Positions 8,367 to 31,424 of a DNA stretch of 64,000 nucleotides are shown here, piece after piece (position 1 is the first letter of the stretch; every line of letters begins with the position of its first letter). The notes beneath the pieces were generated by a model. That model was not told the origin of the DNA and ran no database searches. It worked only from the letters and a program-made list of their open reading frames with translations. Made by a program: the position numbers and the translations under genes. The DNA is from Vicinamibacterales bacterium (GTDB lineage Bacteria > Acidobacteriota > Vicinamibacteria > Vicinamibacterales > UBA8438): assembly GCA_965116845.1 (NCBI GenBank), contig OZ220728.1, forward strand, positions 3,970,309 to 4,034,308, read 5' to 3'.

Positions 8367-8449
8367 CCGTCTCCTTGTCCCCTTGAGCCTTCCCCCGCCC
8401 GACGACCGGGCTGGTTGGCGGCCCACTTTCGAAAGACCGCTGTCTCCTG

Positions 8450-9031
8450 CTACTCGACCACCTGCACGCGGGTCTCGGCGACCGCCCACGACGAGGCCGG
8501 CATCTGGGCCGTCGCCCGGTTGAGCCCGCGCAGGAACGTCCCTGCCGTCGACGCCAGGACCATCGGTCGCGTCAGCGTGCTCCCCTGGTTGTCGGCGAAG
8601 CCCACGAACGGCTGCCGCGTCACCAGGAACACCACCCGGTCGACCCCCGCCGGCAGCGACGCCCGGATCACGAGGCCGTCGCCCGCACGCGGATACTCCA
8701 CCTGTGCCCCGGCCGCCACCGGCAGGTTCTCCGCCAGCAGCGTCACCCCGCCGTCCGCGTTGACCAGGTAGAGGTGCCCGAAGCCCGCCTCGCTCGACGA
8801 CACCCGGAAGCCGATCGGCGTCCCCACCGCCACCGGCGGCGCCATCGTCGGCGTGACGCCCACCGCGAACGCCGGGGAGTCGTTCGCCGCCACGTCCACC
8901 CCGCCCGCCCCCACCAGCACGCCGTTCCCCGTCGACCGGCAGCCGGCGGCCGCCACCAGAACCAACGCCGATGCCGCCGCCAGCACGCTGGCCCGGGAGG
9001 TCCCGAACCGCGCCACTCCGTATCCGGTCAT
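8450..9031 (-). CDS. DUF4384-like lipoprotein
   Basis: ATG 9031 overlaps the kinase stop (ATGA); lipobox LVAAAGC; FRVSSSEAGFGHLYLVNADGGVTLLAENLP DUF4384-like core. Confidence 0.7.
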   Translation of the reverse strand: MTGYGVARFGTSRASVLAAASALVLVAAAGCRSTGNGVLVGAGGVDVAANDSPAFAVGVTPTMAPPVAVGTPIGFRVSSSEAGFGHLYLVNADGGVTLLAENLPVAAGAQVEYPRAGDGLVIRASLPAGVDRVVFLVTRQPFVGFADNQGSTLTRPMVLASTAGTFLRGLNRATAQMPASSWAVAETRVQVVE

Positions 9032-11892
9032 TGCTCCGCTCCCCCCGTCTTCCCTTCGGCCCTTGTCCACGCACTGACCGAGGCCGTTGCCGCTGTAGAC
9101 GCCGCGGACCCCGAAACCGGACGCGGATCGATGGTCTCCCCCGCGTGCGCCGCCGATGGGTTCGGGTGGAGCGACAGGGGCGCCGGCGGCAGCGAGTCGG
9201 GGACGAGCGTGCGGACGGCCGCCGCCAACGCGCCCGCCGTCGTCGGCCGGGCGGCGGGCGGCGCGGCCAGCATCTCGCCGGCGAACGACAACACCGCCTC
9301 GACGGCGTCCGCGTCGGCCGCGCCCGAGCGGGCGGCCGGCCGCGTCCGCAGCCGCTGGTTGCGGATGGCGTCGACCATCTCCTCGACCGTCGCGCCCGCG
9401 AACGGGCGCCGGCCCGCCACCGTCTCGTACAGCACCACGCCCAGCGCCCACACGTCGTCCGCCGCCCCCGCCGGCCGCCCGCCGAGCGCCTCCGGCGACA
9501 GGTACGCCACCGTGCCCCCGCCCAACGGCCGGCCGCCCCCGCTGATGTCCGCCAGCCCGAAGTCGAGCAGCTTCGGCGTCCCGCGCGACGTGAACCCGAT
9601 GTTGCTCGGCTTCACGTCCCCGTGCCGGTACCCCGCCGCGTGCAGCGCGTCGAGCGCCTCGGCCACCGCCGTCACCACCCACACCGCCGCCCCCGGCGCC
9701 AGGGGCTCGCCCCCCAGGCGCGCCGCCAGCGTGCCCCCGTCGAGGTGCTCCATCACCAGCAGCGGCCGCCCCCGCCACGTCTCGAGGCTGTGGATCTGGG
9801 CGACCCCCGGGTGCGCCGACGCCGCCATCGCCTGCGCTTCCCGCCGCAACTGCGCCAGGCCCGCCGCCGACACGCCGTCCAGCGTCTTGATCGCCACCAC
9901 CCGGTCCAGCCCGATGTCCCGCGCCCGGTACACCGTCCCCATCCCGCCCGCGCCGATGCGCCGCTCCACCGCCAGCTTGCCCGCCACCAGCACCGGAAGC
10001 GGCGCCTCCGCCCACTCGCCTCCGCACGCGTCGCACCGGGCGCCCGCGTCGACCGCCGACGCGACCCGCCCGCACGCCCCGCACGCCCGGGCCGGCGGAG
10101 CCTCCCCGGTCGACCCGGGCTGCCGCAGCCGCGCGAGCGTCAGGCTCGCCGCCCCCGCCAGCGCCTCCAGGAACGACACGTCCACCGGCCGCAGCCGGGC
10201 GCCGTCCGCCCGGCGACCCACCACCAGGAGGCCGGACAGCGTTGCCCCGGACCCGGCAACCGGCACGACCTGCGCCGCCCCCGTCGCCGTCACCCACGCC
10301 GCCTCGCCCGGCGGCAGCAGCTCGAACGCCGTCTGCCGGCCCTCCGGATCGACCAGGAGCGAGCTGCGGATCTCGGCCAGGACGCCGGCCAGCAGCGATG
10401 CGCGCGGCAGGGGAGCGAGCGTCCCGCCGGGCGCCGCGAACCGCTCCTCGGACGCGTCGAGCGCCGCCAGCATCCCGGCCGGCACCCCGGCGCCCTGCCG
10501 CGCCGCGCGCGCGACCGCCGCCTCGACCTCCGCCGCCTCGGTCGCCTGCCCGAGTTCGCCGCCCGCCGCCGCCAGCGCCCGCCGCTGGTCCGCCGTCTCC
10601 GGCGCCACCCACCCGTCCAGGCTCGCGAGCAGACGCTCCCGCCACGCCAGCGCCACCAGCGCCGCGGCCGCGGCCCCCACGCAACCCTGCGACAGCGGGT
10701 CCGCGAGCACCGCGCGCACCGGCACGTCCGCGCGACTCACCAGCAGCGCCGCCAGCGCCGCCAGCGGCCCCGCCGTCAGCACCGCCAGGCCGCCCCGCGT
10801 CAGCAGCCGTCGCGCCGACACCCGCACCGTCGTCCGCACGTCCAGCACCCGCAGCGCGATCGCCGCATACAGCGTCAGGTACGGGACCGCCAGCGCCGAC
10901 ACGCTCCCCAGCACACTCACCCAGTTCGCCGCGGCCACCGTGACCGTCCCCGGGGAGAACACCTCGACCACCCCTTCGACGTGCGGCGCCAGCGCCGCCG
11001 CAATCCCGCCCACGAACAGCAGTGTCCGCGAACGGTCCTCGCGCGCCACGCCCCCGACGCGCAGCAGCAGGACGGCCAGTCCGGCCAGGAGGAAGAGGCA
11101 GTGCGGGCCGAAGAACGCCGGCGCGATGTAGGCGCCCGGAACCTCCCGCGCCAGCACGCCCAGCGATGGGCTCAGCGCCTGCACCGGCGCCAGGTTCGCC
11201 ACCTGCAGCACGCCGCCCACCCCGGCCGCCAGCAGCGCCATGCGCGTCGCCCAGGCGTCGAGCCGCGTCCCCCGCCGGACCCGCGGGAACTCCCGCACGA
11301 ACAGCCAGAAGACGGCCGGCAGGAAGAGCTCCGGGTAGAGGCCCACGCCGAGACCGCCCGCAACCGGCTGCGCCCAGAACGCGCCGAGCAGCACCAGCAC
11401 CGCCCCCAGCAGCCGCGACCGGCGGTCGAACCGGCCGCCCACGTACAGCACCAGCCCGCACACCGGATACAGAACGTGGGGGACGATGCGCAGCAGGAGC
11501 GCCGCCGGCGACAGGTCCTCCACCGGCAGGAAGCCCCGCGCCGACTCGTCCGGGCCCGCCAGCGCGGCCAGCATCCCCTCGGCCGCCGCCGGCAGCAGCG
11601 CCGCTCCCGTGAACAGCCCGACCGCCGACTCGAGCAGGCCGATGGCGACCAGCACCCCGACCGCGCGCCGCGCGAGCCGCGACTCCCGGCCGTCGCGCCC
11701 GGCCCGTCGGCTCGATGCCACCGCCGCCCCCGCGGTGCGGCAGATCCCCTCCAGCGTGCGGAGCTGCGCCAGCGCGCCCCGCTCGGCAGGGTGGGCGCGC
11801 GACGTGCACCGCTCCCAGTCCACCTCCTGGCCGGCGGCGACCGCATCCGCCACCTCCGGCAACAGCCCGCGTCCCCGCGTCTCGCGACTCAC
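9028..11892 (-). CDS. Polytopic membrane Ser/Thr protein kinase (N-terminal multi-TM region, GAF-like middle region, Cys-rich ribbon, C-terminal kinase)
   Basis: GTG 11892 after GGAGGAG; kinase blocks IGAGGMGTVYRA, VVAIKTL, HGDVKPSNIGF (non-RD), LLDFGLA, YLSPE; Cys cluster CGACGRV..ARCDACG before the kinase; about 8-10 hydrophobic segments; paralog at 59626..62391. Confidence 0.88.
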   Translation of the reverse strand: MSRETRGRGLLPEVADAVAAGQEVDWERCTSRAHPAERGALAQLRTLEGICRTAGAAVASSRRAGRDGRESRLARRAVGVLVAIGLLESAVGLFTGAALLPAAAEGMLAALAGPDESARGFLPVEDLSPAALLLRIVPHVLYPVCGLVLYVGGRFDRRSRLLGAVLVLLGAFWAQPVAGGLGVGLYPELFLPAVFWLFVREFPRVRRGTRLDAWATRMALLAAGVGGVLQVANLAPVQALSPSLGVLAREVPGAYIAPAFFGPHCLFLLAGLAVLLLRVGGVAREDRSRTLLFVGGIAAALAPHVEGVVEVFSPGTVTVAAANWVSVLGSVSALAVPYLTLYAAIALRVLDVRTTVRVSARRLLTRGGLAVLTAGPLAALAALLVSRADVPVRAVLADPLSQGCVGAAAAALVALAWRERLLASLDGWVAPETADQRRALAAAGGELGQATEAAEVEAAVARAARQGAGVPAGMLAALDASEERFAAPGGTLAPLPRASLLAGVLAEIRSSLLVDPEGRQTAFELLPPGEAAWVTATGAAQVVPVAGSGATLSGLLVVGRRADGARLRPVDVSFLEALAGAASLTLARLRQPGSTGEAPPARACGACGRVASAVDAGARCDACGGEWAEAPLPVLVAGKLAVERRIGAGGMGTVYRARDIGLDRVVAIKTLDGVSAAGLAQLRREAQAMAASAHPGVAQIHSLETWRGRPLLVMEHLDGGTLAARLGGEPLAPGAAVWVVTAVAEALDALHAAGYRHGDVKPSNIGFTSRGTPKLLDFGLADISGGGRPLGGGTVAYLSPEALGGRPAGAADDVWALGVVLYETVAGRRPFAGATVEEMVDAIRNQRLRTRPAARSGAADADAVEAVLSFAGEMLAAPPAARPTTAGALAAAVRTLVPDSLPPAPLSLHPNPSAAHAGETIDPRPVSGSAASTAATASVSAWTRAEGKTGGAEQ

Positions 11893-11992
11893 CGTCTCCT
11901 CCTGCCTCGGGTGCCCGCACGCCCCATTGCCGGGAGAAGACGTCTGCCCGCGCCGAACCGGACACGGGGCGCCGGCACCGTGCCGACCTCGC

Positions 11993-12604
11993 TCAGGCGT
12001 CCATCTCCTGCGAGAGACGCACCAAGGCCCGCCGTAGCGCCTTGCGCGCCGCTTCCGCGCTGGCCCGCTCGTCCACCAGCGCCAGTTGCCGGAACGAGTA
12101 CCCCAGCTCGGCACGACCCACGATCAGCCGCCGATCGCGCGCCGTCAGCCGTCCCAGCGCCCGCAGGTAGTGCGCCCAGGACTCCCCGTCGATCGCCTGC
12201 TGCAGCGGGGACGGGCCGCCGGCCGGCAGCTCCTCCCCGTCCAGCTCGTCCTGGGGGCCGCGGCGCACCACGCGCCGCATCTCGTCCCGGATGCGGTGGT
12301 CGACCGCACGCAGGAGGTACGCCCGGAACGCCGCGCTGCTCGTCGACTCGAATCCCGTCAGCCGACGCACCGTGTGCAGCAGGACTTCCTGCACGAGGTC
12401 GCTCGTGTCGGCCACCCCTCGCGCCCAGACCGGCAGCCGCCCCCGCGTCCGACGCCGCAGCCACGGGAACCAACGCGCGAACAGCGCCCCCGCCGCCGAA
12501 CGGTCCCCCCGCCGCGCCCGCGCCAGGAGCTCCGACGACCCGGTCGTCGCCGCCGACTCGGCAGGCTGCCTCCCCGCGTGGGCTCGTCTCTCGTCTCCCG
12601 GCAT
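11993..12604 (-). CDS. ECF-type RNA polymerase sigma factor (kinase-associated type)
   Basis: ATG 12604; region 2 DTSDLVQEVLLHTVRRL and region 4 LTARDRRLIVGRAELGYSFRQLAL; paralog at 62388..63041. Confidence 0.85.
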   Translation of the reverse strand: MPGDERRAHAGRQPAESAATTGSSELLARARRGDRSAAGALFARWFPWLRRRTRGRLPVWARGVADTSDLVQEVLLHTVRRLTGFESTSSAAFRAYLLRAVDHRIRDEMRRVVRRGPQDELDGEELPAGGPSPLQQAIDGESWAHYLRALGRLTARDRRLIVGRAELGYSFRQLALVDERASAEAARKALRRALVRLSQEMDA

Positions 12605-12639: not shown

Positions 12640-12870
12640 CTCGTCGATCGAGATCCGCCGAAGGGTGTGCAGCAGCGCGTGCTGCTACAACGTCGCTCGT
12701 CTCGGCGAACCGCCGCGCCCAGCCCGGCAGGCGACCGGGCGCCCGCCGCCGCCACGGGAACTGCCGCGCGAACACCGCGTCGACCGCCGAGCGACCCCCT
12801 GCCGCACCCGCTCGAGCAGCGCCGTGGAGGCGGTCGCCTCAGCCGGCCGACTCGGAATGCCGTCTCCCGG
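12640..12870 (-). pseudogene. Diverged partial duplicate of the sigma-factor N-terminus
   Basis: EATASTALLERVRQG../..AVDAVFARQFPWRRRAPGRLPGWARRFAETSDVV parallels SAATTGSSELLARARRGDRSAAGALFARWFPWLRRRTRGRLPVWARGVADTSDLV of the intact gene; frameshifted and truncated. Confidence 0.55.
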
Positions 12871-12878
12871 TAGACCGT

Positions 12879-12910
12879 CGGAAAGAGGTAAAGAGTTGAA
12901 GATGCAAGAG
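12879..12910 (-). repeat. Conserved AT-rich element directly 3' of the target-gene stop codon (copy 1 of 3)
   Basis: plus-strand cGGAAAGAGGTAAAGAgtTGAAGatgcAAGAG; related copies at 16627..16660 and 20021..20052. Confidence 0.6.
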
Positions 12911-14734
12911 CTAATCCGGCGTCCTCGCCACGCGAAAACCGATGTACGAGGCCCGGCTCTCCGCATCGCCCCTGTCGCGATACGCCGACCGGAGGCTCCA
13001 CGGGCCGTAGAGCCAGGAACCGCCACGAACCACACGACGACTACAGTTCCCGCCCGTCGTCCAGGCCGAGCCGTCCCGCGGCGCCCGCGCGTAGTTCTCG
13101 TGCCAGCAGTCCTCCACCCACTCCCAGACGTTGCCGTGCACGTCGTGCAGGCCCCACGCGTTCGCCGCGAACGACCCCGCCGGAGCCGTCCGATCGTCAT
13201 CCCAGCGGCTGCGGCAACCATCGCAGTTGGCCCGGTTGCGGCCGATGTCGTCCCCCCAGGTGTAGCGCGTCGTCGACCCCGCGCGCGCTGCGTACTCCCA
13301 CTCCGACTCGCTCGGCAGCCGGTACGCCTCCCCCGTCTCCTCGGAGAGCCACGCCGCATACGCGGTCGCGTCCTCCCACGACACGTTCATCACCGGGCGC
13401 CCCCCACGGCCCCAGCCCCCGTCGTTCGGACGGTTCCGGCGCGTCGCCTGGGCGAAGCGGTCGTACTCCTCGAACGTCACCTCGTAGACGCCCAGCGCGA
13501 ACGAGGGCACCTCCACCTCGTGGACCGGCCGTTCGTCGTCCTCGCAGTCCCGCCCCGACACGCAGCCCATCCGGAAGCGCCCCGACGGGACCACCACCAG
13601 CTCCGGACACTCCGGGCAGTCCCGGAACACCGTTCCCGCCTCCCGCTGCTGCGGTCGGTCCGCCCCGGGCCGAGCGGTGGGCCGATCCGCCGACCCACCC
13701 CGCAGCGCCGACAGCCGGTTCGTCGCCAGCGCCCGGAACGTTCCGGCCGGAAACTGCCGCAGGTACGCCTCGAAGTCCGCCGCGCTCTCGCTGTTCACGA
13801 TCGACTGCCAGAACACCGTCTCCTGCTGCGCCAGGACCGTCGCCGACAGCCCGTCCGCCACCGTCACCGTGCCCGGGCCCGACGCGGCCCCCAGGTAGTG
13901 CTCGCCCAGCAGCGACCCGTACTCGTGCGGACGCTGCTCCCCGTCGGTCGCCTCCAGCACCTGCGCCCGCACCCGCCGGAACACGGCGCTCAGTTCCAGC
14001 GGTTGCTCCAGGTACGCCAGCAGCGCCGTCGTGTACGGACTGTTGCGCCCGTCGCCGTCCGCCGCCGTCGTCCCCGCCGCGGCGGCGTACGCCACCAGCG
14101 TCTCCTCCCCCAGCAGCGCCTCGTCCAGCTCCCCGAAGCTCCCCCGGCTCACGCTCCGCGCCGCCCCCGTCCGCTGCATCGACCGGGAGAGCGGGTTGTT
14201 CCGGCACGCGTCCAGGATCACCACCCGCAGCGCCGCCCCCGTCGTCGCCCGCAGCACCCGGTCCAGCGCCAGCGCCTCGTACTCCACGTCCGTGTCCCGC
14301 TCCAGGCGCGCGTCCACCGGCACGAGGTAGTTCACCCCGTCCACCTCCAGACCGTGCCCCGCGTAGAACACCACCGCCACGTCCGCTCCCGCGCTCGAAC
14401 GCGCGAACAGCCGCAACGACTCGTTCATCCCCGCCAGGTCCGCGTCCCGCACCGTCGTCACGTCGAACCCCAACCGCCCCAGCGCCGCCGCCATGTCCGC
14501 CGCGTCGTTCCCCGGGTTCGGCAGCGCCCCGATCGCGGCGTAGGTGCCGTTCCCCACCACCAGTGCTACGCGGCCCGCCGCCAGCGCGACCGGCGACGCC
14601 GCCAGCACCGCCAGCCCCACCAGCACCGAAAGCACCACTGCCCGCCGGAGCCCGATGCGGTGCCCCCGGCCGCACGAAGCGCAGCGTGCCGCTTCCGTCC
14701 GCCCTCCTCTTCGATCGGCACTCTCAGTCCACAT
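12911..14734 (-). CDS. DGR target 1: exported caspase (peptidase C14) - FGE-sulfatase/C-type-lectin fusion
   Basis: ATG 14734 7 nt after AGGAGGAA; hydrophobic leader; caspase dyad FYAGHGLE / ILDACRNNP; FGE domain RLPSESEWEYAARAG, HGNVWEWVEDCW, VVRGGSW; C-terminal 124 nt matches the TR. Confidence 0.92.
   Translation of the reverse strand: MWTESADRRGGRTEAARCASCGRGHRIGLRRAVVLSVLVGLAVLAASPVALAAGRVALVVGNGTYAAIGALPNPGNDAADMAAALGRLGFDVTTVRDADLAGMNESLRLFARSSAGADVAVVFYAGHGLEVDGVNYLVPVDARLERDTDVEYEALALDRVLRATTGAALRVVILDACRNNPLSRSMQRTGAARSVSRGSFGELDEALLGEETLVAYAAAAGTTAADGDGRNSPYTTALLAYLEQPLELSAVFRRVRAQVLEATDGEQRPHEYGSLLGEHYLGAASGPGTVTVADGLSATVLAQQETVFWQSIVNSESAADFEAYLRQFPAGTFRALATNRLSALRGGSADRPTARPGADRPQQREAGTVFRDCPECPELVVVPSGRFRMGCVSGRDCEDDERPVHEVEVPSFALGVYEVTFEEYDRFAQATRRNRPNDGGWGRGGRPVMNVSWEDATAYAAWLSEETGEAYRLPSESEWEYAARAGSTTRYTWGDDIGRNRANCDGCRSRWDDDRTAPAGSFAANAWGLHDVHGNVWEWVEDCWHENYARAPRDGSAWTTGGNCSRRVVRGGSWLYGPWSLRSAYRDRGDAESRASYIGFRVARTPD
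12919..13042 (-). repeat. DGR variable region VR1
   Basis: 124-nt match to TR 15011..15134; by hand 17 substitutions at TR adenines (coding strand) plus 2 silent non-A differences. Confidence 0.9.
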
Positions 14735-14973
14735 CAGCGTTCCTCCTGTTACAACCATCACCCGCACCGCAGCCTTGCTCCGCGGCGCCTGCTCCCCCGC
14801 TCCGGCCGTCACTCGCCGGTCTGCACCGCGAGCGTCGTCCGCCGCACCGAACGGCAGCCGGCGCCCGTCGCCCTCCGCGGTGGGCCAGGACGGGCGCCGG
14901 CCGTGGAGCCGCCGCGGAAGTCCGGCGGCCCCTGCTCAACATGACCGGCCCGGATGGACGCACCCGTGCGCGC

Positions 14974-14997
14974 CCGGCGGGGCCGTGACCCCGCCGG
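14974..14997 (-). other. GC hairpin (9-bp stem, 6-nt loop) just 3' of the TR
   Basis: ccggcgggg ccgtga ccccgccgg; lies 14 nt downstream (minus sense) of the TR end. Confidence 0.6.
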
Positions 14998-15010
14998 CTC
15001 CGGCCGCGGT

Positions 15011-15134
15011 GCGTGCTCGCCACGCGAAAACCGATGTTCGTGTTCCGGTTCTCGGCATCGTTCCTGTTGCGATTCGCCGAACGGAGGTTCCTCGGGTTGT
15101 TGTTCCAGGAACCGCCACGAACCACACGACGACT
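15011..15134 (-). repeat. DGR template repeat (TR)
   Basis: Non-coding copy of the VR starting 9 nt after the RT stop; reads SWNNNPRNLRSANRNRNDAENRNTNIGFRVAS with 9 AAC + 1 AAT codons at the positions that vary in the VRs. Confidence 0.9.
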
Positions 15135-15143
15135 GGGGGCCGG

Positions 15144-16226
15144 TCAGGCCCCCGGGACCGGCCGCCCGCGCGGCGCGAACCACCCGTCCCGGAAGATCGA
15201 GCGGCGCAGACGCCGGGTATCGGCGTGCGCCGCGTGCGCTACCCACGCGCCCACTCGCTGCTCCACCTCCGCCCGCCGCACGCTCCCCGCGCGCCACCGG
15301 TCCCGCAGCCCGCGCAGCCGGCGGCGGAACCGCCGCACGTTCGGCTCCGGCAGCCGCCGGCGGCCCCCGGGCAGCAACACGTACCCGAGGAACTCCGCCG
15401 GCTCCGACGTCCGTGCGATGCGCGTCTTCCGCGGGTGCAACGACAGCCGCCGTCCCGCCAGATACGCGGCCACGCGACCGCGCCAAATCCCGAGCTGCCC
15501 GGCATCGGCGGCGAACAGCGCGAAGTCGTCCACGTAGCGCAGGTACGGCGCCCGCAGCACCTCGGTGACGAAGTGGTCGAACCCGTCGAGGTAGACGTTC
15601 GCGAAGAGCTGGCTCGTCAGGTTCCCGATCGGCAGCCCGCGGCGGCGCTCATAGGGCGTGAACAGGTCGTCGCCGGGATAGTAGTGATGGACCGGCTCCT
15701 GCGGATTCGACCCGTCGATGATCCGGTCGAGCACCGCGAGCGTCCGTCGGCAGGCCACGCGCCGCCGGAGGTCGGCCTTCAGGACTGCGTGGTCGATGGC
15801 CGGGAAGTAGCGCAAGACGTCGCCGCGGAGAACGTAGTCGTGGCGGTCGCGGAAGCGCTCGAACTGACGCACCGCCCGGTGCGTCCCCTTGCCGGTCCGG
15901 TTGGCGTAGCTGTGCGCGATGAAGCCCCGCTCGAACAGCGGCCCCACGACCGCGTGCACGGCGTGGTGCACCACCCGGTCCCGGAACGGCGCCGCCGAAA
16001 CCAGGCGCCGCTTCGGCTCCGTCACCTCGATCTCGACGTAGCGGCCCGGGCGCCAGCTTCCGGCTCGGAGCTCCCGTTCCAGCCGCAGCACCTCCGTCTC
16101 CAGGTTGGCCAGGAACGCCGCCGGCACCGGCGTCCGCCGCTTCCCGGCCACGGCCCGCAAGGCCGCCGGCGCAAGCGCCTCGAACGAGGCGACGGCGTCG
16201 AACAGCCCGTCACGCGCGCGCGGCAT
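15144..16226 (-). CDS. DGR reverse transcriptase
   Basis: 360 aa; IGNLTSQLFANVYL (DGR-type motif 4) and YLRYVDDFALF (YxDD); adjacent to Avd and the TR. Confidence 0.93.
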   Translation of the reverse strand: MPRARDGLFDAVASFEALAPAALRAVAGKRRTPVPAAFLANLETEVLRLERELRAGSWRPGRYVEIEVTEPKRRLVSAAPFRDRVVHHAVHAVVGPLFERGFIAHSYANRTGKGTHRAVRQFERFRDRHDYVLRGDVLRYFPAIDHAVLKADLRRRVACRRTLAVLDRIIDGSNPQEPVHHYYPGDDLFTPYERRRGLPIGNLTSQLFANVYLDGFDHFVTEVLRAPYLRYVDDFALFAADAGQLGIWRGRVAAYLAGRRLSLHPRKTRIARTSEPAEFLGYVLLPGGRRRLPEPNVRRFRRRLRGLRDRWRAGSVRRAEVEQRVGAWVAHAAHADTRRLRRSIFRDGWFAPRGRPVPGA

Positions 16227-16575
16227 CGTGCGCCTGCTGGGTCTTCCGCCAGCCGCCGATCAGCCGGCCCGTCTCGTCGATCGACCGCGCCGCGTGCGCG
16301 TAACGCTGCCCGTCCAGGTGCCGCAGGTCCTTCGCCAGCCGGCACAGGTAGCGCAGCTTCTCGATGCCGAGGTTCGCCGCCGCCAGGTGCGGCCCACGCG
16401 CCCGGGTGTACGTCGCGTCGATCAGCCGCTCCAGCACATCGAGCGCCGTCGCCTGCAGCCGGTCCCCCAGCAGGAACTTCTGGCTCCGCGGGAACCGCTC
16501 CACCGTCGGCACCAGCCACAGCACGAACCGGTACATTGCCTCCAACGCCGGCCCCGTCCGCCGCGCGGCATCCAT
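16210..16575 (-). CDS. avd: Avd-like accessory variability determinant (four-helix-bundle, 23S rRNA-IVS protein family)
   Basis: ATG 16575 after GGAGG; 121 aa, basic and helical (MYRFVLWLVPTVERFPRSQKFLLGDRLQATALDVLERLIDA...); overlaps the RT start by 17 nt. Confidence 0.8.
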   Translation of the reverse strand: MDAARRTGPALEAMYRFVLWLVPTVERFPRSQKFLLGDRLQATALDVLERLIDATYTRARGPHLAAANLGIEKLRYLCRLAKDLRHLDGQRYAHAARSIDETGRLIGGWRKTQQAHDAARA

Positions 16576-16626
16576 CGTCACCTCCGTGCATCTTCCCACC
16601 GCCCGCGTCGCCTGACCGCCCGCGGG

Positions 16627-16660
16627 ACGAAAGAGGTAAGGAGTTGAAGGGACAAAGACC
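16627..16660 (-). repeat. Conserved AT-rich post-stop element (copy 2)
   Basis: acGAAAGAGGTAAGGAgtTGAAGggacAAAGAcc. Confidence 0.55.
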
Positions 16661-18669
16661 TAATCAAGCGTCCTCGCCACGCGAAAACCGATGCGCGCGT
16701 TCCGGGTCTCGGAATCGAAGATGAAGCGATCCGCCGAACGGAGGTCATTCGGGGGAGCACTCCAGGAACCGCCTCGACCCACTCGCCCATTGCAGTTACC
16801 GCCCGTCGTCCACGCCGAGCCGTCGCGCGGGGCCCGCGCGTAGTTCTCGTGCGAGCAGTCCTGGACCCATTCATACACGTTGCCGTGCATGTCGTACAGG
16901 CCCCACGCGTTCGCCGCGAACGAGCCCGTCGGCGCCGTCCGATTCGCGTCGTCCCAGCGGCCCTGACGACCCGCACAGTTCGCTCGGCTGCGGCCGCTGT
17001 CGTCGCCCCAGGTGTACCGCGTCGTCGTCCCCGCGCGCACCGCGTACTCCCACTCCGACTCGCTCGGCAGCCGGTACTCGTCCCCCGTCTCCTCCGAGAG
17101 CCACGCCGCATACGCCGTCGCGTCCTCCCACGACACGTTGATCACCGGGCGCCCCCCGCGGCCCCAGCCCTCGTCGCCGGGCCGTTCCCGGCCCGTCGCC
17201 GCCGCGAAGCCGTCGTATTCCTCGAACGTCACCTCGTACACCCCCAGAGCGAACGACGGCACCTCCACCTCGTGCACCGGGACCTCGTCGTCCTCGCAGT
17301 CGCGTCCCGACACGCAGCCCATCCGGAAGCGACCCGCCGGGATGACCACCAGCTCCGGGCACTCCGGGCAGTCCCGGAACACCTCTCCCGGCTCCCGGGC
17401 CCGAGGCGGGTCCACGACGGCGGGGGCGGGCGCCGCCTCGCGCAGCACCGCCAGCCGGTTCGCCGCCAGCGGCGCGTAGATCCCGCTCGGCCAGCGCGCC
17501 AGGTACGCCTCGAAGTCGGCCGCGTTCGTGCTGTCCCGCATCGACTCCCAGAAGACCGTCTCCGCCCGGGTCAGCTCCGCCACCGGCACGCTCGCCGTCG
17601 CCGGTGGCGCCGCTACGGGGGCCGGGACCGTGGCCGGCGGCGAGGGGGCGGCGGCGGAGAGGGCGGCGGCCGGCACCGGCGCCCCCAGAGCGGCCGCGCC
17701 CACCGCGTCCAGGTACCCGGTCGCCGAAGCGTCCCGCGACGTCTGCCAGCCCCGGATGGCCGCCCGCGTCGCCGGACCGAACACCCCGTCCGCCGGCCCC
17801 GGCGAGAACCCCGCCCGCGTCAGCCCCTGCTGCACCAGCCGCCGCGACGCACGGTCCAGGCCCAGGGCCGCCTCCACCGCGCGCGGCTCCACGCCCGTCG
17901 CCGCGCGCAGGTAGTGCTCCCCCAGCAGCGACGCATACTCGTGCGGGCGCTGACGCCCCTCCGTCGACTCCAGCACCCGCGCCCGAACCTCGCGGAACAG
18001 CAACCCGAGCTCCAGCGGCTGCTCCAGGTACGACAGCAACGCCGACGTGTACGGGCTGTTCCGCCCCGTCCCGTCGTCCGCCGTCGTCCCCGCCGCCGCC
18101 GCATACGCCACCAGCGTCTCGTCCCCCAGCAACGCTTCGTTCAGGTCCCCGAAGCTCCCCCGGCTCACGTTGCGCGACGCCCCCGTCCGCTGCATCGACC
18201 GGGCCAGCGGGTTGTTCCGGCACGCGTCCAGGATCACCACCCGCAGGTCCGCGCCCACCGTCGACGCCAGCACGTCGTCCAGCACCACCGCCTCGAACCG
18301 CACGTCCGTGTCCCGCTCCAGACGCGCGTCGACGGGGACGAGGTAGTTCACGCCGTCCATCTCCAGGCCGTGCCCCGCGTAGAACACCAGGGACACGTCC
18401 GCCCCCGCGCTCTCCCGCGTGAACACCCGCAACGCCTCGGTCATCGCCGCCCGGTCCGCGTCCCGCACCGTCGTCACCTCGAACCCGATGCGGCGCAGCG
18501 CCGCCGTCATGTCCGCCGCGTCGTTCCCCGGGTTCGGCAGCGGCCCGATGTGCGCATACGTGCCGTTGCCCACCACCAGGGCCACCCGGCCGGCGGCGAA
18601 CGCGTCCGGCGGCGACGCCACCAGAACGACCGCCAGCAGCAAGAGGGCGCCGAGCTTCGCAGATCGCAT
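16660..18669 (-). CDS. DGR target 2: exported caspase - peptidoglycan-binding domain - FGE/C-type-lectin fusion
   Basis: ATG 18669; signal peptide MRSAKLGALLLLAVVLVASPPDAFAA; FYAGHGLE / ILDACRNNP; PG_binding_1-like GPADGVFGPATRAAIRGWQ; FGE domain as in target 1; C-terminal VR. Confidence 0.92.
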   Translation of the reverse strand: MRSAKLGALLLLAVVLVASPPDAFAAGRVALVVGNGTYAHIGPLPNPGNDAADMTAALRRIGFEVTTVRDADRAAMTEALRVFTRESAGADVSLVFYAGHGLEMDGVNYLVPVDARLERDTDVRFEAVVLDDVLASTVGADLRVVILDACRNNPLARSMQRTGASRNVSRGSFGDLNEALLGDETLVAYAAAAGTTADDGTGRNSPYTSALLSYLEQPLELGLLFREVRARVLESTEGRQRPHEYASLLGEHYLRAATGVEPRAVEAALGLDRASRRLVQQGLTRAGFSPGPADGVFGPATRAAIRGWQTSRDASATGYLDAVGAAALGAPVPAAALSAAAPSPPATVPAPVAAPPATASVPVAELTRAETVFWESMRDSTNAADFEAYLARWPSGIYAPLAANRLAVLREAAPAPAVVDPPRAREPGEVFRDCPECPELVVIPAGRFRMGCVSGRDCEDDEVPVHEVEVPSFALGVYEVTFEEYDGFAAATGRERPGDEGWGRGGRPVINVSWEDATAYAAWLSEETGDEYRLPSESEWEYAVRAGTTTRYTWGDDSGRSRANCAGRQGRWDDANRTAPTGSFAANAWGLYDMHGNVYEWVQDCSHENYARAPRDGSAWTTGGNCNGRVGRGGSWSAPPNDLRSADRFIFDSETRNARIGFRVARTLD
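16668..16791 (-). repeat. DGR variable region VR2 (more diverged)
   Basis: Same 124-nt register as the TR; many A-site changes, plus non-adenine differences (for example TR AGG vs ATC, GCC vs TCC, GTT vs GGT). Confidence 0.75.
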
Positions 18670-18774
18670 TCTTCCCCTCCCCGTTGCGTCGACGCTCTCA
18701 GAGGAACGCCGTCTCGTCAGTGGTGGCCGCGCCCCGTTTCGAGAGGCCGTCATCGGGACGTCTGTTCCAGGATT

Positions 18775-18830
18775 CCAGTCGATGTAGTACGAGACGCGCG
18801 CCCACCTGTGCGCACCCGCGGCCGAGTTCC
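18775..18830 (-). pseudogene. Short 3' remnant of a trypsin-like protease gene
   Basis: ccagtcgatgtagtacgagacgcgcgcccacctg... reads RVSYYIDW, homologous to the end of 5171..6079 and to 22255..22870. Confidence 0.6.
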
Positions 18831-19090
18831 GGGTTCTTGTCGCGATTCCGTAGCGGACAACGGAGCCCGGTCCGTCAGGACATCGGCGCTGCACGGAGAG
18901 CTTCGAGCGTGGTCAACCGGTGCACCCGGCCGCTCTCGTATGCTGCGCAACCGGACCCATCAACGAACATGGTCGGCATTTCTTGGTGGTTGTCAAGGGT
19001 ACGGCCAGACGGTGTTTCCGCCTTCTTCTACCAATTCGATGGAGCGCGGAAAGCTATATGCCGCAGATTCGGGGTCCGGCTCCCAGAGTC

Positions 19091-19107
19091 ACTACCAATT
19101 AGGTAGT
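19091..19107. promoter_or_regulatory. Palindrome ACTACC-N5-GGTAGT, conserved in three cassette copies
   Basis: actaccaattaggtagt; a half-site ctaccaat lies about 65 nt upstream; copies at 23223..23237 and 29843..29858. Confidence 0.4.
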
Positions 19108-19204
19108 CACAAGAACGGTTGGAGCATCGGGCTGGAAACACGGGCCGAGCGTGCACCCGCGTGCCGTACGAGCTGCTGCGGTCGGTCCCGGCGCCGAAGT
19201 AATG

Positions 19205-19925
19205 AGGCGGGTAACCGGCATTGGGCGAGCACTACGCGTTCGGCGGCATCCTGGCCTCGTTGCACGACGTCATGCTCGGCGATGCCCGCTGGCCATGCTG
19301 TTCCGGACCGGAGGCCAGGACAGCCTGAACCCCCGGCTCGACGGGCCGGACGGCTCCTTCATCACCTGAGGACCTCCGAGACCCCGTCGACGCGGACGGC
19401 TGGGGGGTGTCGCGGATCGCATGGGTCACGAATCTGCTGCCCCACATCCGGCAGTGGCGTCCGTGTCCGGCAGGCGCTCGTACGGGCCGAGGCGCGGCAC
19501 ACGACCGGTCACGGCCCTGCTCGACAACCCGCGGGTCGGCGTCCTCCCACCTGGACCGGCGCGGGCCCGTCCTCGCCGCCAACGAACGCGCCCGACGCAT
19601 CCTCCGGAACGGCGACGGGCTGACGGACCGGGGACGGGATGCTCCCGCACGACGGCCGACCAGGCCCGGCTCGAGCGGATGGTGGGCGACGCGCTGCCGG
19701 GCTCCGGACGGGCTGCGGTCAGCGGGTCGATGCGGCTCCGCCGCTCGCCCGTGTTGCCGCCGTTCGTCGTACACGTCAAGCCCGTGCGCGGCCCGCAGCC
19801 CGACTACGGCGCGCGCCATGTCGCCGCGCTCGTGCTGGTCGTCGAGCCGGGGCGCCAGCATCGCCTCGATCCCGAGCGGGTCGCCACGACGCTCGAGCGG
19901 ACACCGGCGGAGGCTCAGGAGCACG
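19205..19925 (+). pseudogene. Regulator-like pseudogene (copy A), frameshifted with the C-terminus missing
   Basis: Segments GEHYAFGGILASLHDVML / MLFRTGGQDSLNPRLDGPDGSFIT* / TALLDNPRVG / DQARLERMVGDALPGSGRAAVSGSMRLRRSPVLPPFVVHVKPV...AALVLVVEPGRQHRLDPERVATTL in different frames. From memory this resembles the sensory part of a LuxR-type regulator family; no HTH is present. Confidence 0.35.
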
Positions 19926-20020
19926 AACCGGTCACATCGCCTCCAGTGCCGGCCCCGTCCGCCGCGCCGCGTCCCCCGGTCACCTCCCGCTGTGCCCTGG
20001 GGGCTCCGCCCCCAGACCCC

Positions 20021-20052
20021 CGGAAAGAGGTAAAGACCTGAAGAAGAAAGAA
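20021..20052 (-). repeat. Conserved AT-rich post-stop element (copy 3)
   Basis: cGGAAAGAGGTAAAGAccTGAAGaagaAAGAAc. Confidence 0.55.
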
Positions 20053-22158
20053 CTAATCCAGCGTCCTCGCCACGCGAAAACCGATGACCGCGTGCCGGAG
20101 CTCGGCATCGACCCTGCTGCGAAGCGCCGAACGGAGGCTCCTCGGGTTGTCGATCCAGGAACCGCCACGAACCACACGACGACCGCAGTCTCCGCCGCGC
20201 GTCCAGGAGGAGCCGTCGCGGGGAGCACCGTCGTAGTCGTCGTGCCAGCAGTCCTCCACCCATTCCCACACGTTGCCCAGCACGTCGTGCAGCCCGAATG
20301 CGTTCGGGCGATAGGCGCCCACCGGCGACGTCCAGAGAACGCCGTCCGTGCAGTCAGCCACCGTCCAGTTGTCGAAGCGCGCCTCGAACGTCCTGTCTGC
20401 ACCGTTGGCGTACGCGCACCCGTCGTCCGGGTCGTCTCCCCAGTGCCGGCGCGTCGTCGTCCCCGCCCGCGCCGCGTACTCCCACTCTGCCTCGCTCGGC
20501 AGCCGGTACTCCTCCCCGGTCTCCGCGCTCAGCCACTGCACGTACGACTGCGCATCTTCCCAGTTCACGCACACCGCCGGATGGTCCCCGGCTTGCGGAT
20601 ACCCCGGGGAGCGCCACGACGCCTCCGAACGCCACTCCCAGCGCCTCTCGTCGGCGTCGAACGCGTAGCACCGGTCGCCCGCGCCGCGACCCGTCGCCGC
20701 CACAAACGCGGCGTACTCGTCCCGCGTCACCTCGTGCACGCCCAGCGCGAAGCGGTCGACCATCACCCGGTGCCGCGGCCGCTCCAAGTCGTAGCTCTCG
20801 TCGTCCCGCCGGTCCGACCCCATCAGGAACTCGCCCCCCGGCACGATCACCATCTCCGGGCAGGTCGGGCAGTCGCGGAACACCTCTCCTGGCTCCCGCG
20901 ACCGAGGCGGGTCTACCAGCGCCGGCGGGGCGCTCGCGGCCTCGCGCAGCGCCGCAAGGCGGTTCGTCGCCAGCGGCGCGTAGATCCCGCTCGGCCAACG
21001 CGCCAGGTACGCCTCGAAGTCGGACGCGTTCGTGCTGTCCCGCATCGACTCCCAGAAGAGCATCTCCGCCCGGGTCAGCTCCGCCGCCGGCACGCTCGCC
21101 GCCGCCAGCGGCGCCGACACGTCGGCCGGCGAGGTGGCCACGGTCGACAGGGCGGCAGACGGCACCGGCGCCCCCAGCGCCGCAGCCCCCGCAACGTCCA
21201 GATAGCCCGTCGCCGTCGCGCCCCGCGACGTCTGCCAGCCCCGGATCGCCGCCCGCGTCGCCGGACCGAACACTCCGTCCGCCGGGCCCGGCGAGAACCC
21301 CGCCCGCGTCAGCCCCTGCTGCGCCAGACGCCGCGACGCACGGTCCAGGCCCAGGGCCGCCTCCACCGCCCGCGGCTCCGCGCCCACCGCCGCCCGCAGG
21401 TAGTGCTCGCCCAGCAGCGACGCGTACTCGTGCGGACGCTGACGCCCCGCCGTCGCCTCCAGCACGCGCGCCCGCACCTCCCGGAACAGCAACCCGAGCT
21501 CCAGCGGCTGCTCCAGGTACGACAGCAGCGCCGACGTGTACGGGCTGTTCCGCCCCGTCCCGTCGTCCGCCGTCGTCCCCGCCGCCGCCGCATACGCCAC
21601 CAGCGTCTCGTCCCCCAGCAACGATTCGTCCAGGTTCCCGAAGCTCCCCCGGCTCACGCTCCGAGACGCACCCGTGCGTTGCATCGAACGGGCGAGCGGG
21701 TTGTTCCGGCACGCGTCCAGGATCACCACCCGCAGGTCGGCGCCCGTCGTCGACGCCAGCACGTCGTCCAGCTCGATCGCCTCGAACCGCACGTCCGTGT
21801 CCCGTTCCAGCCGCGCGTCGACTGGGACCAGGTAGTTCACCCCGTCCATCTCCAGGCCGTGACCCGCGTAGAACACCAGGGACACGTCCGCCCCCGCGCT
21901 CTCGCGCGTGAAGACCCGCAGCGCCTCCGCCAGCGCGTTCCGGTCCGCATCCCGGACCGTCGTCACGTCGAACCCGAGGCGGCGCAGCGCCGCCGTCATG
22001 TCCGCCGCGTCGTTCCCCGGGTTCGGCAGCGGCCCGATGTGCGCATACGTGCCGTTGCCCACCACCAGCGCCACCCGGCCGGCGGCGAAGGCGCCCGGCG
22101 GCGACGCCACCAGAACGAACGCCAGCAGCCAGAGGGCGCCGAGCTTCGCAAATCGCAT
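20053..22158 (-). CDS. DGR target 3: exported caspase - peptidoglycan-binding domain - FGE/C-type-lectin fusion (divergent FGE scaffold)
   Basis: Signal peptide MRFAKLGALWLLAFVLVASPPGAFAA; caspase and PG-binding parts nearly identical to target 2; different FGE scaffold (FALGVHEVTRDEYAAF, HPAVCVNWEDAQSY, LGNVWEWVEDCW); C-terminal VR. Confidence 0.92.
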   Translation of the reverse strand: MRFAKLGALWLLAFVLVASPPGAFAAGRVALVVGNGTYAHIGPLPNPGNDAADMTAALRRLGFDVTTVRDADRNALAEALRVFTRESAGADVSLVFYAGHGLEMDGVNYLVPVDARLERDTDVRFEAIELDDVLASTTGADLRVVILDACRNNPLARSMQRTGASRSVSRGSFGNLDESLLGDETLVAYAAAAGTTADDGTGRNSPYTSALLSYLEQPLELGLLFREVRARVLEATAGRQRPHEYASLLGEHYLRAAVGAEPRAVEAALGLDRASRRLAQQGLTRAGFSPGPADGVFGPATRAAIRGWQTSRGATATGYLDVAGAAALGAPVPSAALSTVATSPADVSAPLAAASVPAAELTRAEMLFWESMRDSTNASDFEAYLARWPSGIYAPLATNRLAALREAASAPPALVDPPRSREPGEVFRDCPTCPEMVIVPGGEFLMGSDRRDDESYDLERPRHRVMVDRFALGVHEVTRDEYAAFVAATGRGAGDRCYAFDADERRWEWRSEASWRSPGYPQAGDHPAVCVNWEDAQSYVQWLSAETGEEYRLPSEAEWEYAARAGTTTRRHWGDDPDDGCAYANGADRTFEARFDNWTVADCTDGVLWTSPVGAYRPNAFGLHDVLGNVWEWVEDCWHDDYDGAPRDGSSWTRGGDCGRRVVRGGSWIDNPRSLRSALRSRVDAELRHAVIGFRVARTLD
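20061..20184 (-). repeat. DGR variable region VR3
   Basis: By hand about 15 substitutions vs the TR, all at TR adenines (coding strand) apart from the G/C switch in the last 5 nt. Confidence 0.9.
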
Positions 22159-22254
22159 TCTTCCCCTCCCAGTTGCGTCGACGCTCTCGGAGGAACGCCG
22201 TCTCGTCAGTGGTGGCCGCGCTCGTTCGAGAGGCCGTCATCGGGACGTCTGTTC

Positions 22255-22870
22255 CAGGATCCAGTCGATGTAGTACGAGACGCGCGCCCACCTGCGCGCA
22301 CCCGCGGCCGAAGCTGACGACGCCGAGCTGCGTCCAGCCCGTCGGCCCGCCCGGCACCACCAGCGGACCGCCGCTGTCCCCCCTGGCACGAGTCCAGCGC
22401 GTCCCTGCTCGTACCCCGCGCACCCCTGGCCGTCCGTGACCGCTGACAGCCGTAGCGCTCAGCGCAGGTCGCGTTGTCGATCACCGGCAGGTCCCACCGC
22501 GCGCAGGCGGTCCGGCAGGGCGCGCGCCGCCACGCGGTACCGTCCCTGTTCCCACGCCGCCGCGCGCCCCCACCGGTCGCCACCGCGCACGCGCCCGGGC
22601 CGAGGTTCGCCTCGATCTGCCCCGACTGCAGCTGCACCGTCTCGAAACCGCGACACCGGCAACGGCGACGACAGCCGGACGAGCGCGATGTCGTTCCCCT
22701 CGTCCGCAGATGCTGCCGAAGGCGTTCGCGTTCCCCGCCATCCCCAGGCTTGGCGTCAAGTTGACTCCCAGCTCCTGGCTCATATCGAGTCCGCCCCCGG
22801 ACTGGGCTCGGACCTCACCCGCGGCGAGGGCCCACAGGACCGCCAACGACCGCCCCCGCTGCGGCGCCGG
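22255..22870 (-). pseudogene. Trypsin-like protease pseudogene (internal deletion plus frameshifts)
   Basis: GDSGGPLVVPGGPTGWTQLGVVSFGRGCAQ, IDNATCAE and a signal-like LAVLWALAAGEVRAQ in different frames; nucleotide-level homology to 5171..6079. Confidence 0.75.
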
Positions 22871-23222
22871 CCGCCGCTCCCCTCAGGAAGCCGCGCCGGT
22901 CGACCGTCGTCGAGCTCGCCGCCACCTTCTGCACGGACAGTTCTCCACCTGTGGAGTTCCGGGTTCTTGTCCCGATTCCGTAACGGAAAACGGAGCCCGG
23001 TCAGTCAGGACATCGGCGCTGCACGGAGAGCTTCGAGCGTGGGTCAACCGGTGCACCCGGCCGCTCTCGTAGGCTGCGCAGCCGGACCCATCAACGAAAC
23101 ATGGTCGGCATTTCCTGGTGGTTGTCAAGGGTACGGCCAGACGGTGTTTCCGCCTTCTTCTACCAATTCGATGGAATGCTGAGGCTATATGCCGCAGATT
23201 TGGTCTCGGCTCCCCCGAGTCC

Positions 23223-23237
23223 CTACCGATTTGGTAG
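23223..23237. promoter_or_regulatory. Palindrome CTACC-N5-GGTAG (copy 2)
   Basis: ctaccgatttggtag in the duplicated leader block. Confidence 0.35.
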
Positions 23238-23703
23238 TCGCAAGAACGGCTGGAGCATCGGGCTGGAAACACGGGCTGAGCGTGCATCAGCGTGCCGTAC
23301 GAGCGCTGGGGTCGGTCCCGGCAACGAAGAATGAGGCGGGTCACCAGCAGGGGCGAGCACGACGCGGTCGGCGGCATCCGGGCCTCGTTGCACGACGTCA
23401 TGCTCGACGATGTCCGCTGGCCTGACCGGAAACGACGGCCGCGAGGCCCCTGGCGACGGCCGAGTGCTCGTCGGGGCCATCTTGCTCACCGGCGTCCGCG
23501 AGGGCCTTCGGAACACGGATCCTGCGCCCAAAGAACCGACCACGGACGCACGTGGCGAGATCCCGGCTCCGGCGAAGTTCCCCGCGGTTGACAGAACCCG
23601 TCTCATCGGACGCCCGCGCGCCGATAACCGAACAAGCCGGATAGAGGCCGCCATCCTAAAGGCTCCCAACAGCCGGCAGATGTTCTAACCCATGCCCCAT
23701 CAC

Positions 23704-31420: not shown

Positions 31421-31424
31421 CGTG

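Follow-up and report, generated by a model that had tools for sequence, protein, structure and literature searches.

Predicted exported caspase-lectin proteins as targets of a diversity-generating retroelement in a Vicinamibacterales bacterium

Results and Discussion

A complete chromosomal diversity-generating retroelement (DGR) and its three target genes were analyzed in the genome of a soil-type Vicinamibacterales bacterium (Acidobacteriota, UBA8438). The window, i.e. the whole stretch of DNA under investigation, comprises 64,000 nucleotides (nt) of contig OZ220728.1 (assembly GCA_965116845.1, positions 3,970,309 to 4,034,308), and all coordinates refer to it. The region has ~70–75% G+C, and all relevant genes are located on the minus strand. 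The three targets of the retroelement (T1, T2 and T3) combine a caspase-like protease domain with a C-terminal FGE/C-type lectin (CLec) domain carrying the variable region. All three are predicted to be exported, and T2 and T3 are also predicted to bind peptidoglycan. An earlier interpretation made from the letters of this DNA alone (the sequence-only reading) had proposed exported, wall-tethered and diversified proteases, a picture that is supported, as a prediction, by the present analysis.

Start codons were set by their Shine-Dalgarno context. T1 (12911–14734) begins with the ATG at 14734 after AGGAGG and encodes 607 amino acids (aa), which divide into a 52-aa leader (RR pair, A-L-A before A at the cleavage site), the caspase domain (13910–14572), a helical module and FGE/CLec scaffold A (12923–13609). 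T2 (16660–18669, ATG at 18669) encodes 669 aa, and a 669-aa product of the same gene is among the database matches. Its 25-aa leader, MRSAKLGALLLLAVVLVASPPDAFA, is followed by AG at the predicted cleavage site, the caspase domain (17923–18588), PG_binding_1 (17704–17850), the helical module and FGE/CLec scaffold A (16672–17361). T3 (20053–22158, ATG at 22158, 701 aa) consists of a 25-aa leader, the caspase domain (21412–22077), PG_binding_1 (21190–21339), the helical module (20932–21087) and FGE/CLec scaffold B (20065–20862), which is PvdO-like with two insertions. The outer coordinates of the targets in the sequence-only reading are confirmed, whereas two limits of its open reading frames (ORFs), 14812 for T1 and 18894 for T2, overshoot the genes and neither is a start. 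The closest genomes are metagenome-assembled genomes of Vicinamibacterales with 78–79% aa identity; more distant caspase-FGE relatives were found in Alpha-, Beta- and Gammaproteobacteria.

The retroelement sits between T2 and T1. It comprises the gene of the Avd accessory protein (16210–16599; Pfam bAvd, E 1.5e-17; NCBIfam DivGenRetAVD, 101 bits against a cut-off of 80), the gene of a reverse transcriptase (RT) of 360 aa (15144–16226; RVT_1, E 2e-13) and a template repeat (TR) of 123 nt (15011–15133). Assignment to the DGR-type RTs was based on the motif (I/L)GxxxSQ plus YxDD, and IGNLTSQ and YVDD are found in the translation. The variable region (VR) of each target lies in the FGE domain, as proposed earlier, and forms the final ~41 codons of this Pfam domain. 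In VR1 (12919–13041) 16 of 19 mismatches to the TR lie at TR adenines, and in VR3 (20061–20183) 14 of 15, corresponding to binomial p values of 2e-8 and 1e-8 for the adenine bias. VR2 (16668–16790) exhibits 15 adenine and 14 non-adenine mismatches to the local TR (15/29, p 6e-4). The TR ends on its 3′ side with GAGCACGC and the corresponding end in VR1, VR2 and VR3 is GAGGACGC; a 3′ 20-mer is shared identically by the TR and the three VRs and is followed by GAGG or GAGC, resembling the boundary at the initiation of mutagenic homing.

The TR contains ten AAC/AAT codons in addition to AGG, ACG, GAT, GAG and ATC, and the ten AAY codons alone permit 15^10, about 6e11, protein variants. Across 28 aligned members of the family the mean column entropy amounts to 3.24 bits at the AAY positions, compared to 0.96 bits for the remaining codons of the VR and 0.55 bits for the caspase domain. 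The same positions have therefore been diversified throughout this lineage, and this family-wide entropy at the AAY codons indirectly supports ongoing mutagenic retrohoming. For T2 two explanations can be given: it is either served by a TR elsewhere or decaying. A second TR in the window as the source of VR2 was rejected, as the conserved 3′ 20-mer occurs only four times. At a related locus (L081, VR/TR repeats at 2868–2990 and 13911–14033) the remote VR fits the TR of our window with 21 adenine mismatches and one other, and fits the adjacent TR of L081 itself worse (22 adenine mismatches and nine others). Because of this better fit, several TR variants or DGRs per genome are plausible in this lineage. 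A motif of ~20 nt (TTCAACTCTTTACCTCTTTC and variants) is kept just past the stop codon of all three targets (12885–12905, 16630–16650 and 20025–20045, minus strand) and at T3 a GC-rich hairpin (CTGGGGGC-GGA-GCCCCCAG) comes after it. The motif possibly belongs to the target-recognition region of the DGR.

The caspase-like domain was recognized in T1, T2 and T3 by the Pfam family Peptidase_C14 with E values of 1e-35 to 1e-37 (124–130 bits against a cut-off of 21.4). The motifs FYAGHGLE and ILDACRNNP, formerly read as the context of the C14 catalytic dyad, are present in all three translations. When the caspase domain of T3 was compared as a single sequence to those of the PDB, the MALT1 paracaspase was found (E 5.6e-9), with FYAGHGLE aligned over YYAGHGYE and ILDACRN over LLDMCRK. 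A profile including homologues from other phyla matched MALT1 over the whole domain (residues 16–237, E 1e-26), caspase-1 (E 4e-14) and also caspase-4, -7 and -3 and CED-3. Throughout the aligned relatives (alignments of 28 and 19 sequences) the catalytic His and Cys do not vary. By our own residue count and the numbering of MALT1, H100 and C150 of T3 presumably correspond to H415 and C464 of MALT1. On the same basis we take D50 and D148 to be the equivalents of D365 and D462 in the Arg-binding S1 pocket. The alignment of these two conserved acidic residues suggests a basic P1 preference, and Arg/Lys-directed proteolysis is predicted.

When the full-length T3 model was submitted to Foldseek only matches of the FGE domain were obtained, and a separate AlphaFold model of the caspase domain was then made. 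Built on a shallow alignment of 10 sequences, it reached a predicted TM score of 0.72 and a mean predicted local distance difference test (pLDDT) of 65.9. Foldseek returned MALT1 and caspases with a probability of 1.0 and TM scores of 0.64–0.70, which places the domain in the caspase-hemoglobinase fold, with an identity to MALT1 of only ~22%. The dyad is intact and lies in a caspase fold, in agreement with the sequence-only reading. A conserved loop behind the catalytic Cys, SMQRTGASRSVSRGSFG, is poorly modelled and may be a processing or regulatory loop. MALT1 is the closest solved caspase-fold relative of the targets, with both the dyad and the acidic residues of the S1 pocket aligned. Unlike the targets, it is a scaffold protease of the eukaryotic cytosol and possesses death and Ig domains.

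The C-terminal domain matches Pfam FGE-sulfatase with E values of 5e-56 to 1e-64 in the three targets. PvdO and PorK/GldK, to which the lectin domain of T3 is related, are envelope proteins, and PvdO is periplasmic. PvdO of Pseudomonas aeruginosa (PDB 5HHA) represents the best match in sequence (E 5e-52) and in structure, with a TM score of 0.85 normalised to PvdO and 39% identity in the structural alignment, and it shares the motif DCxxCPEMV with the T3 domain. FGE, PorK/GldK and the Treponema DGR protein TvpA (2Y3C) were matched as well. PvdO itself is an undiversified single-domain protein of pyoverdine maturation, whereas the targets are multidomain and diversified. Closer in this respect are TvpA of Treponema denticola and LdtA of Legionella, which are cellular exported DGR targets with an FGE-type CLec domain and a C-terminal VR, as observed here. 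Both are lipoproteins without an enzymatic domain. In contrast, a protease is fused in our targets and a lipobox is missing.

Homologues of the targets carry the public name 'SUMF1/EgtB/PvdO family nonheme iron enzyme'. According to this annotation, and with PvdO as the best structural match, the C-terminal domain would be an oxidoreductase of the SUMF1/PvdO/EgtB type rather than a domain for binding. The catalytic cysteine pair of FGE (CxxxxC) is missing from the domain, and its position is taken by hypervariable, AAY-coded residues: CHDSYC of the S. coelicolor FGE aligns to the variable, AAC-coded segment IDNP..., which contains no cysteines. The NCBIfam enzyme models stay far below their cut-offs (PvdO 232 of 500 bits, EgtB 88 of 360, GldK 126 of 350), and the match to TvpA, a DGR variable protein, likewise speaks against an enzyme. 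We therefore give very little credence to an oxidoreductase. Due to the absent catalytic cysteines and the low scores of the enzyme models, the C-terminal domain is predicted to be a binding scaffold and not an FGE, PvdO or EgtB enzyme; the public name is misleading for this family.

The leaders were assessed manually and heuristically by their n-, h- and c-regions, small residues at −3/−1 and the Shine-Dalgarno-supported starts. T2 and T3 begin with MR(S/F)AKLGAL(L/W)LLA(V/F)VLVASPP(D/G)AFA-AGRVAL (predicted cleavage at the hyphen), i.e. a basic n-region, an h-region of 13 residues, Pro at −5/−6 and Ala at −3/−1. The 52-residue leader of T1 (14579–14734) ends with ...GLRRAVVLSVLVGLAVLAASPVALA before AG and has a long charged n-region, and the hydrophobic core is immediately preceded by RR (GLRRAVVL). 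Both a Sec signal with an extended n-region and a weak Tat signal are conceivable for this leader. The motif at the mature start occurs in 112 of the 120 closest homologues, and in 111 of these 112 a strongly hydrophobic 10-residue window lies among the 30 residues before it. The signal-peptide-like leaders described earlier were thereby found again in all three targets, with A-x-A before a conserved mature N-terminus. Alternatively, the hydrophobic segment could be an uncleaved signal anchor that tethers the proteins to the inner membrane with their domains in the periplasm. The h-regions consist of 13–15 strongly hydrophobic residues, and T1 as well as many homologues possess long charged N-terminal extensions, both of which would suit an anchor. 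On the other hand, Ala at −3 and −1 and Pro at −5/−6 are found in all three leaders, the conservation of the family starts exactly at the predicted +1 position, and an h-region of 13 residues is short for a membrane span. An anchor is distinctly unlikely on these grounds, and export with cleavage of the leader is a well-supported prediction.

A peptidoglycan-binding module had been proposed for T2 and T3. PG_binding_1 was indeed found by Pfam above the curated cut-off of 23 bits in T2 (47.3 bits, E 2e-12) and T3 (53.9 bits, E 2e-14), and it is absent from T1. Both proteins contain GPADGVFGPATRAAIRGWQ in this segment, and in T3 the domain is a three-helix module with its helices (residues 262–327) modelled at pLDDT 77–96. 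From this domain we infer that T2 and T3 would be tethered to peptidoglycan. Between the caspase/PG region and the FGE domain lies a conserved three-helix module of ~50 aa (20932–21087 in T3, with equivalents in T1 and T2), with the consensus ETVFWxSIxxSxxxxDFEAYLxxxPxGxxxxLAxNRLxAL and pLDDT values of 83–92. No match to this module was found among Pfam or PDB sequences. It occurs twice in one relative (L029).

The relationship of the three targets was measured in a three-way nucleotide alignment by 60-nt windows and counts of informative sites. T2 and T3 share ~95% nt identity in most windows from ~630 nt upstream of the start through the caspase domain, the PG module and the linker, compared to about 50–83%, mostly 60–75%, in the FGE domain. 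T1 and T2 share 83–94% in most FGE windows and 70–97% in the caspase domain. The single best breakpoint (chi-square 125.8) falls on the first residues of the FGE domain, at 17374–17384 in T2, 20875–20885 in T3 and 13622–13632 in T1. On its 5′ side 169 informative sites join T2 with T3 and 43 join T1 with T2; on its 3′ side the counts are 51 and 154. The proposed recombination between paralogs is thereby mapped. Likewise, the suggested shuffling of domains is borne out as a mosaic, whereas a distinction between a caspase A and a caspase B is not, since all three caspase domains belong to one subfamily (80% aa identity between T1 and T3, 93% between T2 and T3). The caspase regions of T2 and T3, described as nearly identical, are highly alike but, with about 95% nt identity, not identical.

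The similarity of T2 and T3 extends beyond the genes. The region upstream of T2 (18670–19300) has a copy upstream of T3 (22159–22340 plus 22954–23422) with 78–98% nt identity per 60-nt window, mostly above 90%. Upstream of T3 lies a frameshifted remnant of a trypsin-like (S1) peptidase (22240–22950). Pfam Trypsin was matched with E 1.3e-5 on GDSGGPLVV...VVSFGRGCA, and tblastn with the trypsin of L083 gave 40–47% identity in two frames. GDSGGPLVV, LPVIDNATC and NDIALVRL are in three different frames, and the frameshifts may be sequencing errors. Upstream of T2 (18780–18830) ~600 bp of the trypsin gene are deleted and only the C-terminal end ARVSYYIDW survives. Past the stop codon the similarity of T2 and T3 resumes, and directly downstream of T3 a 68-nt avd remnant from the 5′ end of the gene is found (19920–19987). 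It matches the start of avd with 87% nt identity over the 68 nt, and Avd residues 10–22 are 100% identical. T3 therefore once stood before an avd gene; an intact Avd/RT pair behind T3 was rejected, as there is the 68-nt remnant only. As reconstructed from the avd remnant, the trypsin remnants and the resumed similarity, the duplicated unit is shown to have comprised the trypsin gene, the target gene and the start of avd, within which the FGE core was, according to the alignment, exchanged at the linker/FGE boundary. Since all combinations of PG module presence or absence with scaffold A or B occur among the homologues, exchange at this boundary is recurrent. Intragenic recombination of this kind has been proposed for DGR targets (Roux et al. 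2021, PMC8144416).

The mosaic could in principle also result from unequal divergence rates among ordinary paralogs, as FGE domains are more variable than caspase domains across the family (entropy 1.09 compared to 0.55 bits). Such rates would have to account for a nearest relative that switches sharply at one point, from 169:43 to 51:154 sites, for a T2/T3 likeness that reaches non-coding upstream DNA and resumes in the downstream avd remnant, and for the free combination of modules among homologues. We regard this origin as extremely improbable and retain recombination.

Within the duplicated upstream DNA, a stretch of low GC content (18960–19100 and 23090–23230; 54–60% GC in a ~70% region) is 95–98% identical between the T2 and T3 copies and carries AATTGGTAG twice as a direct repeat, with a spacing of ~60 nt. 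No sigma-70 consensus was found in this stretch, a candidate regulatory region. A fourth caspase paralog is present in the window as a fragment (29327–29638, minus strand, inside the ORF 27992–29776), consisting of a signal peptide and the caspase domain up to FYAGHGLD with unrelated sequence beyond, and represents a truncated or rearranged copy.

Downstream of T1 a conserved cluster extends over 5174–12559 on the minus strand. It begins with an ECF-type (extracytoplasmic function) sigma factor (11999–12559; Sigma70_r2 and sub-threshold NCBIfam ECF-type matches; 71–92% aa identity to the syntenic genes of L084 and L083) and a polytopic membrane Ser/Thr kinase with a C-terminal kinase domain (9031–11892; Pkinase, E 5e-39; 86% aa identity to the L083 gene). 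These are followed by four exported genes, identified by Pfam and by signal or lipobox sequences: a DUF4384 lipoprotein (8453–8944), a double-DUF4384 protein (7278–8363), an OmpA-like protein (6734–7270) and a further DUF4384 protein (6112–6684), together syntenic with L083 at 85–93% aa identity. The last gene encodes an intact exported trypsin-like serine protease (5174–6064) with TAAHC, NDIAL and GDSGGP and 88% identity to the Trypsin gene of L083. A signal peptide or a lipobox is present in all neighbours of the cluster that are not cytoplasmic. The same genes occur in the same order beside caspase-FGE targets in three related contigs (L081, L083 and L084), the closest of which, L083, shares 85–93% aa identity over the cluster genes; two of the three also have Avd-RT between two targets. 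Further exported hydrolases, Reprolysin_5 and Peptidase_S8, were found in the neighbourhoods of relatives. A second pair of ECF sigma factor and membrane Ser/Thr kinase is encoded at 59677–62936 (minus strand) and is 43–47% and 29–30% identical to those homologues in relatives that match the first pair.

The presence of PG_binding_1, the envelope-type relatives of the lectin domain and the entirely exported neighbouring genes support a location in the envelope. A cytoplasmic location was weighed against it, in which the targets would be conflict-system sensors as in cyanobacteria or Thiohalocapsa and the leader-like segments artefacts of the assigned start codons. The DGR targets with a caspase domain that have been published are for the most part predicted to reside in the cytosol (PMC7517822, PMC10907252), and the targets show a weak similarity of 64 bits to the EACC1-associated caspase model. 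However, this score lies below the model's cut-off of 140 bits, with the starts supported by Shine-Dalgarno sequences the proteins begin with the hydrophobic leader, the ORFs scanned include no NTPase, vWA or MoxR gene, and PG_binding_1, the PvdO-like domain and the exported neighbourhood argue for the envelope. A cytoplasmic location of the targets is accordingly very improbable.

For the function of the targets we consider it fairly probable that they are DGR-varied exported caspase-lectins, two of them wall-bound, which most likely serve envelope surveillance or defence. T1 to T3 would be exported to the periplasm, with T2 and T3 held on the peptidoglycan. The hypervariable lectin tip would bind changing ligands and would thereby recruit or activate the Arg/Lys-directed caspase-like protease. 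Via the envelope cluster, this event could be passed on to transcription or to a cascade of proteases. Surveillance or defence, directed at phage or competitor proteins on their entry into the envelope, would be the most likely purpose, where the defence role is suggested by analogy only. The recruitment or activation of the protease by ligand binding, with the trypsin-like protease and the kinase and sigma factor as partners, is speculative.

Several observations weigh against this proposal. Confidence in the models is moderate (mean pLDDT 71.5 and 65.9), and the p20–p10 linker region is modelled poorly. No MoxR/vWA or STAND partner is present in the ORFs scanned, nor do the targets contain such domains. 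PADLOC gave only generic matches to caspase, kinase, RT and ATPase models and none to a specific defence system. With its 14 non-adenine differences from the TR, VR2 may indicate that T2 is no longer diversified by this TR. Finally, most of the distant caspase-FGE relatives in other phyla have no RT within 8 kb; diversification is therefore not universal in the caspase-FGE family.

The main functional rival is an outward-acting protease, secreted or released at the surface and targeted by its ligand for feeding, predation or attack on neighbours. T1, lacking the PG-binding module, would be untethered, and no lipobox or membrane anchor follows the leader. The Reprolysin_5 and Peptidase_S8 hydrolases near relatives would fit such a role, and surveys have proposed extracellular substrates as the ligands of cellular DGR targets (PMC8144416). 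Against this, two of the three targets carry PG_binding_1, the OmpA-like and lipoprotein neighbours point towards retention in the periplasm, the conserved pair of sigma factor and kinase is more suggestive of signalling than of digestion, and no secretion system was found among the ORFs scanned in the window. We therefore judge outward action to be unlikely compared to envelope surveillance or defence. A further-reaching form of the surveillance proposal was also considered. There, the exported caspase-lectins would act as variable receptors of a periplasmic surveillance system, with the DGR providing anticipatory diversity and the capture of an envelope ligand, e.g. a phage or competitor protein on its way across the wall, activating the caspase. 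The caspase would act jointly with the trypsin-like protease, and the event would be relayed via the kinase and ECF sigma factor or via envelope damage. This form is tentative and, in our estimation, doubtful.

The wider surroundings of the locus are plastic. The stretches 1644–4408, 30902–35447 and 47492–55961 contain two IS110 transposases and a tyrosine integrase, further transposases of the Mu/rve type (Mu-transpos_C_2 plus rve), the rve type, DDE_Tnp_1 and the Mutator family, as well as an SMC/ABC-type ATPase that resembles defence ATPases (mad3/LmuB-like). A prophage origin was rejected; no phage structural genes were detected among the ORFs scanned, and insertion sequences are abundant instead. 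Rfam and tRNA scans of the window gave no matches, and a promoter/terminator scan of 12700–23600 gave nothing above chance.

Parts of this architecture are known from other systems. Orthocaspase-CLec proteins have been described as DGR targets in cyanobacteria (Vallota-Eastman et al. 2020, PMC7517822), including the Trichodesmium DGR (PMC4143802). They share with our targets the DGR-varied C-terminal FGE-type lectin and the N-terminal C14 caspase homologue, and they likewise occur as several targets and paralogs per genome. The cyanobacterial proteins are mostly predicted to be cytosolic and belong to multicellular hosts, whereas here signal peptides, an acidobacterial host, exported envelope neighbours and two copies with PG_binding_1 are found. 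Hypervariable FGS sensors with caspase or trypsin effectors are also central to proposed conflict systems, namely the ternary/STAND systems (Kaur et al. 2020, PMC7159879) and those of Thiohalocapsa PB-PSB1 (Dore et al. 2024, PMC10907252). Common to these and our locus are a hypervariable FGS/CLec sensor combined with caspase or trypsin peptidases and several targets per element; periplasmic as well as cytoplasmic sensors were envisaged there. In contrast, no MoxR, vWA, VMAP or STAND NTPase is encoded among the neighbouring ORFs scanned here, and the protease is fused directly to the sensor and predicted to be exported.

Among 671 metacaspase proteins, 33 fusions with FGE and 11 with PG-binding domains were reported (Asplund-Samuelsson et al. 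2012, PMC3501461). This survey contains the same domain pairings and suspected its N-terminal hydrophobic segments to be signal peptides; unlike the present work it treated FGE as an enzyme and made no link to DGRs. A 2025 preprint notes proteases fused to FGE-type and PG-binding sensors and caspase-like proteases linked to DGRs (PMC12642450). Its Pepco/EACC1 modules share the pairing of protease and FGE/PG-binding sensor with our targets. No Pepco or EACC1-like small effector was recognised beside the targets, where small ORFs were not searched exhaustively, and with 64 bits against a cut-off of 140 in the NCBIfam model caspase_w_EACC1 the targets are not assigned to the EACC1/Pepco group. 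The statement in the sequence-only reading that caspase-FGE fusions have been discussed only in comparative work is essentially right (PMC3501461, PMC7517822, PMC7159879, PMC10907252).

Conclusion

Caspase-FGE fusions, caspase-bearing DGR targets and the modularity of targets are already published. What is new here is the exported, wall-binding form, as predicted, together with the avd remnant after T3 and the conserved cluster. In the literature searched, neither an exported caspase-PG_binding-CLec protein as a DGR target nor the sigma-kinase-DUF4384-OmpA-trypsin cluster has been described. The neighbouring cluster, the avd and trypsin remnants that record the duplication and the non-adenine divergence of VR2 had no place in the sequence-only reading.

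Proposals on bacterial immunity repeatedly feature caspase effectors combined with hypervariable lectin sensors and nearly always place them in the cytoplasm. The locus presented here is a compact and clean example in which the whole module is predicted to be periplasmic and two copies to be wall-binding, and its conserved partner genes suggest concrete experiments. It also provides a case within one genome, with its breakpoint mapped, of the shuffling of domains proposed in surveys for DGR targets. If the more far-reaching receptor proposal were true, it would represent an antibody-like protease immunity module outside the cytoplasm. Under the name 'SUMF1/EgtB/PvdO family nonheme iron enzyme', thousands of proteins in the databases probably represent exported proteases that carry a binding domain. 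Current views are not overturned by these findings but extended to a new compartment and a new phylum.

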